Source of the DNA: Saccharopolyspora gloriosae
GTDB lineage: Bacteria > Actinomycetota > Actinomycetes > Mycobacteriales > Pseudonocardiaceae
Assembly: GCF_022828475.1 (NCBI RefSeq)
Contig: NZ_CP059557.1
Span: 2,463,470 to 2,527,469 of the forward strand
Direction: 5' to 3'
Length of the DNA stretch: 64,000 nucleotides
In this document: positions 25,790 to 35,780 of the stretch, in pieces
Layout of the letters: each line of letters starts with the position of its first letter
Position numbering within the stretch: position 1 is the first letter of the stretch
Notes under the pieces: model-generated
Told to the model about the DNA's origin: nothing
What the model saw: only the letters and a program-made list of their open reading frames with translations
The model's database searches: none
Program-made: the position numbers and the translations under genes

Positions 25790-25897
25790 GACCTGCTGCC
25801 AGGAAGCCGCTGAAAACCCGCCGGTGGCCGTCCTGCTGGGGCGCTCAGTGCTCAGTGGCTTCACCGCTGACAAGAGGCGGATCAAGACCATTCTGCA
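25790..25897 (+). repeat. dispersed ~100-nt intergenic repeat, copy B
   Basis: CAGGAAGCCGCTGAAAACCCGCCGGTGGCC...GCTCAGTGGCTTCACCGCTGACAAGAGGCGGATCAAGACCATTCT; ~70% identical to copy A over ~100 nt, same orientation. Confidence 0.6.
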
Positions 25898-26083
25898 CTG
25901 ATTCCTTACTCCGAATGGGCGGTAGGTCTTCCGGTGGAGTCGGCCCTGCCGCCAACATGGCCGAGGTGAAGATCGAACCGGTGCTCCGTTGACCGATGTT
26001 GTGGTCGGCCCGGCCGTGGAAGGAGCAGCGTGCCCAACTGCCGCCTGCGCGCGGCCGCGACCGCATCGGGTTGAGGAGTGCGA

Positions 26084-28852
26084 GTGCTGGATCCGCGCGC
26101 TGAAGCGGTATTGATCTTTGATCAGTCGGCTGGTCGGTTTCAGGATCGGACAGCCGACATATCCGCGGTCGAGCCTTTGGCGGACGGGCGGGTCGGCATC
26201 GTGTTCAACGGTGGCAAGCGCTATCCGTACGGATCGGGGCGTGTGCGGGCTCTTCGCGACCCGGAACGCATCGCGCTCAACGGAGAAGTTCGGGTCGAGG
26301 TGCGCGGAGCTGTCTGGGAAAGCGCCGTCGAGATCGCCACGTTCGCTGATTCGGAGGGCGCGTGGGCCAGGGTTTTCTACCGGCGCAAGGGAAACGAGAC
26401 GTACCGGACCTATCCTGATTCGGAAGTACGCGTTCTCACGTCCGCGACCGGATCCGGGGCGGCGGCCGAGGTGTTCCGCTACTGGCGGGACGTCGTGGCC
26501 GGGCTCCCCGGTGACGATCCGCTGGTGCGGCCGTACGGCAGGCTGAGTTTCGTCAACCCGGAGAGCGCGCTGGGGGCGTACCTGGCCGGTGCACCGATCA
26601 CGCCGCGCGAACCGACCGGTGTCGCGATCTTCCCGTTCCGGTGCAACCTGAGTCAGCGCCAGGCGGTCGAGAACGCCCTCACCCGTTCCGTTTCGGTCAT
26701 CCAAGGTCCGCCCGGGACCGGAAAGACCGAAACCATCCTGAACCTGATCGCCAACATCACCGTGCGAGATCGGACCGTCGGCGTCGTGTCGCACAGCAAC
26801 TCCGCCGTCGACAACGTGCGGGAGAAGCTCGTTGAACTGGGCTTCGGGCATGTGTTGGCGAGCCTCGGAAAACAGGAGAAGCGCAAGGAGTTCTTCGCCG
26901 GGCAGGCCGATCGCAACGCACGGGTCGCCGGCTTCGCCGCCGAGACTCCGCCGCCGCCCGAACCCGGGCGGCTGGCCGACGTGGACCGGCGCTTGCGCCG
27001 CCTGCAGTCCACCGAACGCACCTTGGCGCAGCGACGGCACGAGGTGGCGGCGTACGGATTGGAGCGGGAGCACTTCGAACGGCACCTGCACGGGGACGAG
27101 ATGCCCGACCTCTCCGGCCTCCCGCTGCTTCGCCGCTCCTCCGGGCGCATCTTGGACTACCTGGCCGAAAGCGAGCTGGAGCGCAACGGTGCTCGTCCCG
27201 GGCTGATTCGGCGGATCCGGAAGTACTTTCGCTACGGCTCGGTGCGCGGCCTCGACCCCGAGGACACCGACGTGGTCCTCCGGCTGCAACGTGCCTACTA
27301 CACGAAGCGGATCGCCGAGCTGGACAAGGAAATCGCGCAACTCGACGAGGAACTGAGACGAGCGGACTTCGACCGGTTGGCGCAGGAACATCGGCAACTG
27401 TCGGTGCAGGCCCTGCACGCTCACCTCGGCGCTCGGTACGGCGGGCTCGCGCGGAAGGAGTACGACGGGGAGACGTATCGGCGGAGCAAGGAATTCCGGG
27501 ACTTCATCGAGGATTACCCGGTCCTGTTGAGCACCTGCCACTCGTTGAGCTCCAGCATCGAGGACGGTTTCCTGCTCGACCACCTCATCATCGACGAGGC
27601 CTCCCAGGTCGACCCACTAGTGGCCGGATTGGCGCTGGCGTGCTGCCGCAACCTCGTCGTGGTGGGAGATGCCGAGCAGTTGCCGCCGATCCCGGCAGCC
27701 TCCGCAGCCGACCACGAGGCACCGAGCCCCGCGTACGACTGCAGACGGAGCATCCTCGGCTCGCTGGAGACGTTGTACGGCGAGGCGCTCCCGAGCGCGC
27801 TCCTGCGCGAGCACTACCGGTGCGACCCGGCGATCATCGGGTTCTGCAACAAGAAGTTCTACCGCGACGAGCTCATCCCTTACACGACCGGTGGCGACGG
27901 CCGCCCGATGATCGTGGTGCGCACGGTCGAAGGAAACCACATGCGCCGGCATCGGACCGGGGGCCGCTCGAACCGCCGCGAAGTGGAGGTCATCGAGACC
28001 GAAGTGATCCCGGACCACTGCGCCGAGGTCGACGCGGCCGACATCGGCATCACCACGCCCTATCGGCTCCAGGCGGACAAAGCCCGCGACCTGCTCGATC
28101 AGATCGCGTCCGACACCGTGCACAAGTTCCAAGGCAGGCAGAAGAAGGTGGTCGTGATGACCACCGTCCTCGACGAAACGTGGCGCGGTCGCAGCGGTTT
28201 GCCGTTCGCCGACGACCCGCACCTGATCAACGTGGCGGTGTCGCGGGCGATCGAGCGCTTCATCCTGGTGACGAACAACGACATGCTGCCGACCAGCCGG
28301 CACATCCGGGACCTGATCGGTCACATCCGCTACCACGATCTTGACGAGGACGTCGTGGACAGCGCGGTGGTCTCGATCTTCGACCTGCTCTACCAGCAGT
28401 ACTCGTTACGGCTGCGATCACTGGCCGGGCGGCTGAAGAACGAGCGGGCCTACAAGTCCGAGGACATCGCGTGGACCGTGCTCCACGAGGTCCTCGCCGA
28501 GCAGCGCTACGAACACCTGACCGTCGTCGCTCAAGTGCTGGTGAAGAGCCTGTTCCCGGACCTGAGCGTGCTCACGCCGGAGCAGGCGAAATACGCCGGG
28601 AATCGAGCATCGGTCGACTTCGTCATCTACAACCGCGTGACGAACCGGCCGCTGCTGGCGATCGAGGTCGACGGCTTCGCCTACCACGAGAACAAGCCGG
28701 AACAACTGCGGCGGGACGAGCTGAAGAATCAGATCTTCCGCACTCACGACATGCCGCTGTTGCGATTGCCGACCACTGGAAGCGGCGAGCAACGTCGAAT
28801 CCGGCAGGCATTGGACGAAGCCGAAACCCACTGGGCGCAGCAGGCGCAGTGA
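26084..28852 (+). CDS. SF1 (Upf1/DNA2-like, AAA_11/AAA_12) helicase with C-terminal DUF2726 (PD-(D/E)xK-like nuclease fold) domain
   Basis: Walker A GPPGTGKTE, DEASQ Walker B box, QGRQKKVVVMT motif VI region; C-terminal ...ASVDFVIYNRVTNRPLLAIEVDGFAYHENKPEQLRRDELKNQIF matches DUF2726; ~190-aa N-terminal domain unassigned; GTG start after GAGGAG. Confidence 0.8.
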   Translation: MLDPRAEAVLIFDQSAGRFQDRTADISAVEPLADGRVGIVFNGGKRYPYGSGRVRALRDPERIALNGEVRVEVRGAVWESAVEIATFADSEGAWARVFYRRKGNETYRTYPDSEVRVLTSATGSGAAAEVFRYWRDVVAGLPGDDPLVRPYGRLSFVNPESALGAYLAGAPITPREPTGVAIFPFRCNLSQRQAVENALTRSVSVIQGPPGTGKTETILNLIANITVRDRTVGVVSHSNSAVDNVREKLVELGFGHVLASLGKQEKRKEFFAGQADRNARVAGFAAETPPPPEPGRLADVDRRLRRLQSTERTLAQRRHEVAAYGLEREHFERHLHGDEMPDLSGLPLLRRSSGRILDYLAESELERNGARPGLIRRIRKYFRYGSVRGLDPEDTDVVLRLQRAYYTKRIAELDKEIAQLDEELRRADFDRLAQEHRQLSVQALHAHLGARYGGLARKEYDGETYRRSKEFRDFIEDYPVLLSTCHSLSSSIEDGFLLDHLIIDEASQVDPLVAGLALACCRNLVVVGDAEQLPPIPAASAADHEAPSPAYDCRRSILGSLETLYGEALPSALLREHYRCDPAIIGFCNKKFYRDELIPYTTGGDGRPMIVVRTVEGNHMRRHRTGGRSNRREVEVIETEVIPDHCAEVDAADIGITTPYRLQADKARDLLDQIASDTVHKFQGRQKKVVVMTTVLDETWRGRSGLPFADDPHLINVAVSRAIERFILVTNNDMLPTSRHIRDLIGHIRYHDLDEDVVDSAVVSIFDLLYQQYSLRLRSLAGRLKNERAYKSEDIAWTVLHEVLAEQRYEHLTVVAQVLVKSLFPDLSVLTPEQAKYAGNRASVDFVIYNRVTNRPLLAIEVDGFAYHENKPEQLRRDELKNQIFRTHDMPLLRLPTTGSGEQRRIRQALDEAETHWAQQAQ

Positions 28853-28887
28853 CGATGTCGCGAGGTGCGTCCGCGCGGTGCTGGTGC

Positions 28888-34870: not shown

Positions 34871-35574
34871 TCCAGACCAGCCAGATCAGTACAGGAATGC
34901 AGTATTCGGTCGACATCGTGCTGTGCATCGACACCACCGGCAGCATGGGACCCATTCTGGAGCACGTCAAGGAGAACGCGCTGTCGTTCCACGACCAGCT
35001 CGGTTCGGCCATGGCGAGCAAGGGACGGAGCATCAGCCAGCTGCGGTTGAAGGTCATCGCGTTCCGGGATTTCGCGGACCGAGCCGAAGACGCCGTTCAC
35101 CAGACCGACTTCCTCCCCTTCCCGGACCGTGCACCCGACTTCGAGTCCTTCGTAGGCGGCCTGCGCTCCGCCGGTGGGGGCGACGCGCCCGAGTCGGGGC
35201 TGGAGGCGCTGGCGCTCGCGATCGGATCGGAGTGGGAGCGCGGGCTCGACCGGCGGCGGCACGTGATCGTGCTGTTCACCGACGCGCCCGCGCATCCGCT
35301 CGGTTCGCCGAGCCAGGTGCAGGCGGCGGGCTATCCGCAGTCCGTCCCGCGGTCGATGGACGCGTTGTTCCAGCAGTGGGGTTTCGCGCACAGCCAGGAC
35401 GCGCTCATGGAGAACTCGGCGAAGCGGCTGTTGCTGTTCGCCCCGGAGAGCGAGCCGTGGGTGGACATCTCGGAGGACTGGAACAACTGCCTGTACTTCC
35501 CGTCCAACGCGGGAGAGGGACTCGAAGAGTGGGAAATGGACGAGATCATCAACTCCATCGCCAACAGTCTTTGA
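34867..35574 (+). CDS. von Willebrand factor type A (vWA, TerY-like) domain protein
   Basis: 235 aa; MIDAS motif DIVLCIDTTGSM and downstream T/D residues; ATGA overlap with kinase gene. Confidence 0.8.
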   Translation: MIQTSQISTGMQYSVDIVLCIDTTGSMGPILEHVKENALSFHDQLGSAMASKGRSISQLRLKVIAFRDFADRAEDAVHQTDFLPFPDRAPDFESFVGGLRSAGGGDAPESGLEALALAIGSEWERGLDRRRHVIVLFTDAPAHPLGSPSQVQAAGYPQSVPRSMDALFQQWGFAHSQDALMENSAKRLLLFAPESEPWVDISEDWNNCLYFPSNAGEGLEEWEMDEIINSIANSL

Positions 35575-35691
35575 GGGCGCCTTTCAAGGGGCCTGCGTGG
35601 GTGTCCGGCTAGCGGAACCTCGGCGGCTTGCTCGCCGCCGCTCGCCGGTGTGGCCGCGATGCCCGATGTATGCCGATAGGCGGCGAAATCG

Positions 35692-35780
35692 CCGTCCTCG
35701 CGAGGAAGCCGCTGAGGACCCGCCGGTGGTCGGCCTGGCTCGGCTCCGCCGCCGACGAGACGAAGAACAAGAACCGGGTT
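35692..35780 (+). repeat. dispersed ~100-nt intergenic repeat, copy C (shorter/diverged 3' half)
   Basis: GCCGTCCTCGCGAGGAAGCCGCTGAGGACCCGCCGGTGGTCGGCCTGGCTCGGCTCCGCCGCCGACGAGACGAAGAACAAGAACC; first ~45 nt near-identical to copies A/B, remainder recognisably related. Confidence 0.55.

Follow-up and report, generated by a model that had tools for sequence, protein, structure and literature searches.

Repeat copies at the locus

The DNA analysed here is a 64,000-nucleotide stretch of Saccharopolyspora gloriosae (contig NZ_CP059557.1, positions 2,463,470 to 2,527,469 of the forward strand), referred to below as the window. Three proteins encoded in it match WP_243794317, WP_243794342 and WP_243794349 exactly. 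The window carries three same-orientation copies (A, B and C) of an intergenic repeat. Copy A lies between the genes for a TauD-family protein and an LLM monooxygenase, copy B between a threonine-aldolase gene and an SF1 helicase gene, and copy C between a VWA gene and the gene that follows it in an SPFH–PP2C–kinase–VWA operon. The initial annotation described a unit of ~90–110 nt and suggested that B and C are att-like or MITE-like (miniature inverted-repeat transposable element) ends of a 9.9-kb cassette or, alternatively, that the copies are a shared regulatory RNA or attenuator. From the evidence given below, the three repeats are probably relic copies of a lineage-restricted, non-autonomous MITE-type insertion element, and not cassette ends, att sites or a riboswitch. 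The family, which belongs to Saccharopolyspora, was previously without description or annotation.

A 27-nt core (AGGAAGCCGCYGARRACCCGCCSGTGG) occurs exactly three times in the window (4435, 25801 and 35703), always in the + orientation. Chance would account for none of these occurrences: 100 dinucleotide-preserving shuffles yielded no match, also when up to three mismatches were tolerated. The repeat is real. Independent repeat-finding grouped the same three sites (families D2, D3 and D13). A profile built from 21 aligned copies was used for nhmmer searches and recovered exactly three copies in the window, with A the most significant, followed by C and B (Table 1). Weak extra matches at 26919–26943, 36223–36247 and 44785–44863 (E 0.036) lie inside genes and were treated as chance GC-rich similarity.

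In a three-way alignment, A and C remain alike for about 90 nt further upstream, beginning directly after the stop codons of the upstream genes. This extends the repeat by about 80–110 nt beyond the initially annotated unit, to ~4331/4342 in A and to 35580 in C. The conserved core, as defined by alignment of the family copies together with their flanks, is about 186 nt long and the whole insertion about 210–240 bp, so that only the 3′ half of a unit about twice as long had been described. Copy B lacks arm 1, the apical hairpin and the left end of the element, and copy C contains a 13-nt insertion and an 18-nt internal deletion.

The window copies are 67–74% identical to one another and 78–84% identical to the cross-species consensus. 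Over 90 nt, B and C share 70% identity, with longest perfect common runs of 12–13 nt, whereas their identities to the consensus are 84 and 81%, respectively. Since B and C are closer to the consensus than to each other, they represent independent old copies and not a duplicated att site. We infer from the identities of 67–84%, the truncation and the internal indels that the window copies are inactive relics.

Empty sites and target duplications

The site of copy A is empty in a Saccharopolyspora metagenome-assembled genome (L035) and in a Logan contig (L036), in which the TauD stop codon and the LLM start codon are 62 nt apart, compared with 303 nt in the window. The LLM monooxygenase encoded there is 87% identical to that of the window and the spacer is otherwise collinear. 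In a single-gap model the insertion measures 238–242 nt. Its breakpoints are ambiguous (4328–4341 on the left and 4567–4583 on the right) because the sequence around (C/G)GTAG recurs at both junctions. At 4330–4341 the TauD-family gene ends in ACG GTT TCG TAG, compared with AGC GCG GCG TAG in relatives; none of the last three codons agrees, and those of the window are rare T-ending or T-rich codons. The C-terminus and stop codon of this gene may have been supplied by the left end of copy A.

At the position of copy C, three contigs (L041–L043; VWA protein 86% or 81% identical) have an empty site with a 14-nt spacer between the VWA gene and the next gene, which reads CTC TGA AGGGAGGGTGCGAG ATG. 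Across these contigs and Actinosynnema (L024), the distance from the VWA stop codon to the next start codon is 10–14 nt. A single-gap model puts the additional sequence of the window at exactly 220 nt, with equally good breakpoints at 35567–35579 and 35788–35801. The VWA stop codon is part of an imperfect target duplication of ~9 nt, TGA(A)GGG(G)CG, that borders the insertion. A copy from Saccharopolyspora sp. NFXS83 (L006:2121–2304, designated L006b) is flanked flush by a 7–8 bp direct repeat, CCTAAGA(G), and has terminal inverted repeats that match at 14 of 16 positions (GGTCCTTTCAAAATGA / GGTCCTTGCAGAATGA).

Together, the empty sites and the duplications indicate a non-autonomous insertion element that duplicates about 8–9 bp of its target, which is the behaviour of a MITE. 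The insertions, at 220–242 nt, are below ~500 bp and have no coding capacity. As a description of the repeats themselves, the term MITE-like is appropriate: the insertions are scattered and encode nothing, relatives have empty sites and a short stretch of the target is duplicated.

Internal structure and coding potential

In rough outline, the core consists of GCCTGCGTAGCGGGTCGGGTAGCGGAAC, arm 1 (CTCAGCGGCTTCCTCGCTGCGGGA), a variable apical hairpin and arm 2 (TGTCCTCGCGAGGAAGCCGCTGAG); downstream of arm 2 are AACCCGCCGGTGGTC..., the 3′ module (CTCAGCGGCTTCGCCGCTGAC) and AAGAC..GATCA. The interior is a nested palindrome: arms 1 (CTCAGCGGCTTCCTCGC) and 2 (GCGAGGAAGCCGCTGAG) pair with each other and enclose the apical hairpin. 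In the 3′ module the arm motif occurs for a third time (arm 3) and forms a 7-bp hairpin of its own, with 94% of cells paired.

Pairing was counted on 24 copies. Standard pairs are present in 96.3% of 757 alignment cells and nine pairs show changes on both sides; the observed pairing values were reached in none of 500 shuffles. When the partners were slid by 1–3 columns as a control, only 35–56% of cells paired. The long arm 1:arm 2 helix was predicted by RNAalifold, with 97.5% of cells paired and seven of the 15 pairs changed on both sides. The sequence of the apical hairpin varies by subgroup (GCAT..ATGC, GTGGC..GCCAC or CGTAG..CTACG) and the hairpin is retained in each. In our own reading of the alignment, the S. 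kobensis copy keeps most of its arm pairs through four double changes. The potential to form the hairpin as a single strand is conserved. Wobble pairs are one-sided on the strand shown (83 G·U cells versus 10 A·C cells), a bias that stems from four fixed positions and is only a hint.

The outer stem proposed initially, in which arm 2 pairs with arm 3, can form (89% of cells) and is weaker than the arm 1:arm 2 helix: one position is mismatched in 13 of the 24 copies, covariation is less and, when copy B is folded by itself, the stem is absent from the minimum-free-energy structure. The true partner of the GAAGCCGC segment lies in the upstream part of the element, beyond the unit as first annotated.

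The element encodes nothing. One-nucleotide indels among copies inside the core break any common reading frame, the only frame of copy A that seemed open contains an in-frame stop and a Pfam search gave no match for the element. Copy A has one terminator-like hairpin followed by a T-run, which is weak. When transcribed within a 3′ UTR or a spacer inside an operon, the ~20-bp GC-rich hairpin could, by analogy with other hairpin repeats, terminate or stabilize the upstream mRNA, or could impose polarity on the gene downstream of copy C.

Table 1. Positions of the repeat copies and associated features in the window.
Feature	Position	Strand	Remarks
Copy A, whole insertion envelope	4331–4581	+	Between the TauD-family stop (4339–4341) and the LLM monooxygenase ATG (4645)
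Copy A, conserved core	4343–4519	+	Model positions 2–186, E 2e-39, full length
Copy A, arm 1 (CTCAGCGGCTTTGCTCGC)	4366–4383	+	Upstream of the initially annotated unit; RNAalifold helix 1
Copy A, arm 2 (ACGAGGAAGCCGCCGAG)	4432–4448	+	'Shared core' of the initial annotation; reverse complement of arm 1
Copy A, 3′ palindromic module (CTCGTCGGCTTCGCCGCTGAC)	4485–4505	+	Third copy of the arm motif, own 7-bp hairpin; motif search
IS4/IS5-family transposase N-terminus remnant, frameshifted (..LSDRRALQGILFVLFTGI / DLPQELGLGSGMTC)	25640–25797	+	Adjoins the truncated 5′ edge of copy B
Copy B, 3′ half only	25799–25905	+	Model positions 100–186 at 25799–25885, right end to ~25905, E 4e-17
Copy C, target duplication, left (TGAGGGCG)	35572–35579	+	Contains the VWA stop TGA
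Copy C, element proper, ~212 nt	35580–35791	+	Core 35591–35770, E 4e-33, full length apart from the internal deletion; between the VWA gene and the sixth operon gene
Copy C, target duplication, right (TGAAGGGGCG)	35792–35801	+	Native spacer and the start codon of the sixth gene (ATG 35809) come next

Distribution and genomic context of the family

A collection of 185,579 species genomes (one genome per species) was searched with a 26-nt core pattern. All 18 loci found are from Saccharopolyspora, 15 of them on 12 contigs of sp. NFXS83 and three in sp. HNM0986; the collection gave no S. gloriosae match, despite the three copies in the window, and thus seems not to include this genome or these loci. 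Some 27 copies were identified by the profile in the window and the related loci, among them truncated ones, a tandem pair (L017) and a head-to-head pair (L003). At least 22 copies lie on 12 contigs of sp. NFXS83, three are in sp. HNM0986 and the window has three within 31 kb. S. kobensis carries a diverged copy (L019:4026–4136). A metagenome scan with the arm 1 pattern yielded one true, near-consensus copy (L031) and eight chance matches. Phage records, plasmid records and viral contigs gave no match to a full copy or to the core pattern. Rfam 15 had no match at the gathering threshold for the whole window and none at E values up to 10 for 4300–4700. Nothing specific was found in the literature on MITE or REP (repetitive extragenic palindromic) elements of Saccharopolyspora, and a 2024 survey of MITEs in NAR (Nucleic Acids Research) mentions neither the genus nor its phylum.

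All copies of the family are intergenic and many cores lie 5–57 nt past the stop codon of a co-oriented gene. Seven copies are between convergent genes, about nine are in the sense orientation between co-directional genes or after a gene, about five are antisense to the adjacent gene and two are between divergent genes. Intergenic DNA near stop codons is the preferred location; gene 3′ ends are favoured with no strict orientation rule (where the context is informative, about 9 copies are sense and 5 antisense). The orientation relative to local GC skew (18:9) is not significant, and the copies counted are not independent.

Copies in sp. NFXS83 cluster locally (L006:1239–2304, L011:4985–6950, L003:5859–6233 and L017:2868–3187). 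Direct pairs bracket one AhpD/CMD-like gene (L006) or two paralogous genes without assigned function (L011), the L003 copies form a head-to-head pair and those in L017 a tandem pair; three copies in 31 kb in the window fit this clustering habit. The open reading frames (ORFs) bracketed by the L006 and L011 pairs showed no recognizable transposase features when their translations were judged by eye, without a domain scan.

Nature of the element

The assignment to a MITE-type element rests on what was observed directly: the element is dispersed and non-coding, forms a hairpin with compensatory changes, is present or absent at two orthologous sites and has a target duplication in the case of copy C. 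In the proposed mechanism, a transposase supplied in trans would insert the element between genes, typically at a stop codon or directly behind one, and would duplicate about 8–9 bp of the target. The type of enzyme and the present mobility are only what we infer from these features; a DDE transposase that makes 8–9 bp duplications would be the candidate. Copy A is an insertion into the TauD–LLM spacer, copy C an insertion within the operon that separates the VWA gene from the sixth gene, and copy B a half-element left by a rearrangement beside the IS5-like insertion sequence (IS) remnant.

Bacterial MITEs with long internal hairpins include the Correia/NEMIS elements of Neisseria, the enterobacterial ERIC/IRU elements, the pneumococcal RUP elements and the cyanobacterial Nezha elements, and are often co-transcribed with neighbouring genes. 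Like the present element, these are generally ~100–250 bp long and non-coding, occur as tens of intergenic copies with a long imperfect hairpin, are insertion-polymorphic between relatives and make short target duplications. They have no sequence similarity to this element, the host of which is a high-GC actinomycete; its terminal inverted repeats are weaker and more variable than its interior, and no partner IS was found for it. Correia elements generally duplicate TA, whereas about 8–9 bp are duplicated here. Duplications of 8–9 bp and ends that begin with GG are found in IS elements of the ISL3 and IS256 types, which offer a lead to the source of the transposase and not a test. The element resembles them in its ~8–9 bp duplication and in the GG start of one end type (GGTCCTTTCAAAATGA), but neither the window nor ~300 kb of related loci yielded an IS of these types with matching ends.

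Several observations weigh against a MITE. Clear terminal inverted repeats are present in only about six of 20 full copies, the others having none; where present, they are 11–22 nt long and of three kinds (GCCTGTCTTTGATC.., GGTCCTTTCAAAATGA.. and CCCCTCCGGAC). It is unusual for a MITE that the interior is the best-conserved part of the element and the ends are weaker. Clean or near-clean target duplications are confined to two or three copies, the junction of copy A is ambiguous and at most copies other than C and L006b a duplication is not evident. The 64-kb window and ~300 kb of related loci contain no autonomous IS with matching ends and no further occurrences of the terminal repeats. The sole ISL3 element seen, near the operon of S. 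shandongensis (L023), has ends (GGTTCTGTCGCTGGTTGCGTGATCAA) unrelated to the repeat. In S. gloriosae the copies counted are three, within the 64-kb window only. The compensatory changes and the four fixed G·U positions on one strand hint at single-strand selection, which plain DDE cut-and-paste transposition does not require. Several copies (e.g. L009) carry extra motif modules beyond their ends, a mosaic arrangement reminiscent of bacterial interspersed mosaic elements (BIMEs).

It is unlikely, but would be of note, that the element is more than selfish DNA. Its core hairpin would then be kept by selection on a single-stranded form, as the compensatory changes (four of them in the S. kobensis copy) and the wobble pairs of one strand suggest, and the element would be a portable RNA module that rewires expression at its insertion sites. 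Alternatively, it could be the first single-strand-mobilized family in Actinomycetota that resembles the REP doublets forming hairpins (REPINs). Such an RNA module may be, for example, a U-tract-independent terminator, an mRNA 3′-end stabilizer or a processing site, and may have uncoupled the sixth gene from the VWA/kinase/phosphatase operon.

A REPIN-like single-strand route is the main rival to the MITE assignment. REPINs and BIMEs are REP doublets mobilized by RAYT transposases (REP-associated tyrosine transposases) in Proteobacteria. The element would on this account be an inverted doublet of a REP-like palindrome (CAGCGGCTTC..CGCTG) with a third copy of the motif, which a Y1/HUH transposase (RAYT or IS200/IS605-type) would mobilize as single-stranded DNA. 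Three copies of a ~17-nt palindromic motif do alternate in orientation, and the inverted GC-rich pair forms a long hairpin with highly conserved arms and a less conserved spacer that keeps its pairing through compensatory changes. The G·U/G·T wobbles all lie on one strand (83 versus 10 cells), and the copies, like REPINs, are extragenic, are often found at gene 3′ ends and occur in mosaic, tandem and head-to-head arrangements (L003, L009 and L017). However, HUH transposition makes no target duplications, whereas they are ~9 nt at copy C and 7–8 nt at L006b. There is no conserved GTAG-type head before each motif and the left flanks have no fixed tetranucleotide; the unit is about twice as long as a REPIN and its copies are found in tens, not hundreds. 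Neither a Y1 transposase nor a RAYT gene was found in the window or beside the clustered copies (the ORFs of L006 and L011 were assessed by translation, with no domain scan). A REPIN-like origin is accordingly quite improbable.

A cis-regulatory leader RNA (a riboswitch or attenuator for the downstream genes, with arm 2 alternating between arm 1 and arm 3) would be consistent with the position of all three window copies upstream of co-oriented genes, with the capacity of arm 2 to pair with either partner and with the terminator-like hairpin and T-run of copy A. The copies between convergent or divergent genes and those in antisense orientation do not fit this function. The downstream genes are mutually unrelated, the same spacers exist in relatives without the element and no Rfam family was matched, at the gathering threshold for the whole window or at E values up to 10 for the copy A region. 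The regulatory RNA or attenuator suggested initially is thus very unlikely.

The possibility that B and C are boundaries of a mobile 9.9-kb segment with the helicase, methyltransferase and kinase/VWA operon, either as att- or attC-like sites or as ends of a composite transposon, is more doubtful still and can be regarded as highly improbable. In its favour, the two copies have the same orientation and lie directly beyond the start of the helicase gene (26078) and the stop codon of the VWA gene (35574), an IS remnant adjoins B, the helicase matches a defence-system profile, which makes its horizontal acquisition plausible, and direct copy pairs in sp. NFXS83 also bracket one or two genes (L006 and L011). 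Copies B and C do lie on either side of the helicase, methyltransferase and operon genes, but they do not flank them exactly, as the operon runs past C into a sixth gene. Copy C is thus an insertion inside the operon, B is 5′-truncated at the IS remnant and has no left half, and the two copies are less alike (70%) than either is to the consensus. The operon part of the block is kept without flanking repeats in S. shandongensis and Actinosynnema: in both, the SPFH–PP2C–kinase–VWA operon (VWA 73–77% identical) has no repeat within 10 kb and neither the helicase nor the methyltransferase nearby. The family has about 27 copies in unrelated contexts, and the GC content of the segment (0.65–0.72, compared with 0.69 for the whole window) is unremarkable.

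The imperfect same-orientation palindromes after ORFs, with copies that are similar within a genome, recall integron attC sites and Vibrio cholerae repeats (VCRs). Unlike these, the element has no R″/R′ core sites (RYYYAAC ... GTTRRRY), which are absent from both strands of the consensus and of copies A, B and C; it occurs on at least 12 contigs and not in a single array, and it inserts into existing spacers, even inside an operon. A Pfam scan of 26 window proteins, covering the neighbourhoods of the three copies, included no integrase and no intact transposase.

The remaining possibility, that the shared core is pseudogene debris (for example, of an ..EEAAENPPVV.. frame), has a negligible probability: one frame is open through the core in all three window copies and the first four differences between A and B fall on third codon positions, but the coding hypothesis was rejected on the 1-nt indels and the in-frame stop of copy A, and a reverse-complement palindrome with compensatory changes and no Pfam match is not what it would leave.

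Neighbouring genes

The IS remnant at the edge of copy B was found by six-frame translation. The match of its hand-stitched peptide to Pfam DUF4096 (E 3.5e-4, 21 bits) does not reach the gathering score. The remnant is the mark of an old rearrangement in the interval from the aldolase to the helicase gene. Synteny based on the threonine-aldolase gene upstream of B was uninformative, with only the aldolase conserved in S. kobensis and sp. WRP15-2; the methyltransferase beside the aldolase of WRP15-2, with 32% identity over 77 aa, is no orthologue. Window 22890–24065, immediately upstream of the aldolase gene, encodes a protein with an N-terminal EACC1 (Effector Associated Constant Component 1) domain and a phytase-like esterase domain. 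An EACC1 and esterase-type architecture is typical of conflict systems.

The SF1 helicase (26078–28852; AAA_11/AAA_12) has a C-terminal DUF2726 nuclease-like domain, and its best match among defence profiles is MkoC of the Mokosh system (E 6e-53, partial). The helicase gene may have been acquired separately and could serve in phage defence as a stand-alone gene that arrived beside IS and MITE debris.

The operon described initially as having five genes has six, comprising window 29715–35574 and an ORF at 35809–36678. The sixth gene encodes a fast-evolving protein of ~290 aa without a Pfam domain, which is 45% identical to the product of L042:1013–1891 (E 3e-55). Its start was given as TTG 35779 in the ORF list, but homology points to ATG 35809 (MWLRRR.. 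versus MWSRRR..). A tandem 48-nt repeat in this gene (36333–36428; two copies, 79% identical) encodes a repeated ..DLHGWGAP.. segment. The first operon gene of the window (29715–31049) has no Pfam match. The first operon gene in S. shandongensis (L023:5126–6115) and Actinosynnema (L024:3974–4585) encodes a TIR-domain protein (TIR_2, with GUN4 in S. shandongensis). Two divergent TIR-domain genes are located ~8–10 kb downstream in the window (43662–46255; AAA_16 with TIR_2, and two TIR_2 domains with GUN4).

Implications for Saccharopolyspora

Saccharopolyspora is a genus of industrial interest that includes the producers of erythromycin and spinosyn. A repeat family of this kind can mislead assembly, annotation and the prediction of islands; for the helicase, methyltransferase and kinase/VWA stretch, the apparent cassette signature is explained away and there is no att-bounded unit. 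MITEs of high-GC actinomycetes have been little studied, and the family is a modest addition to them and not a surprise. It marks recent insertion polymorphisms that are usable for strain typing, and where it has placed a ~220-nt insertion with a stable hairpin inside an operon, as at copy C, it may alter the expression of the downstream gene.

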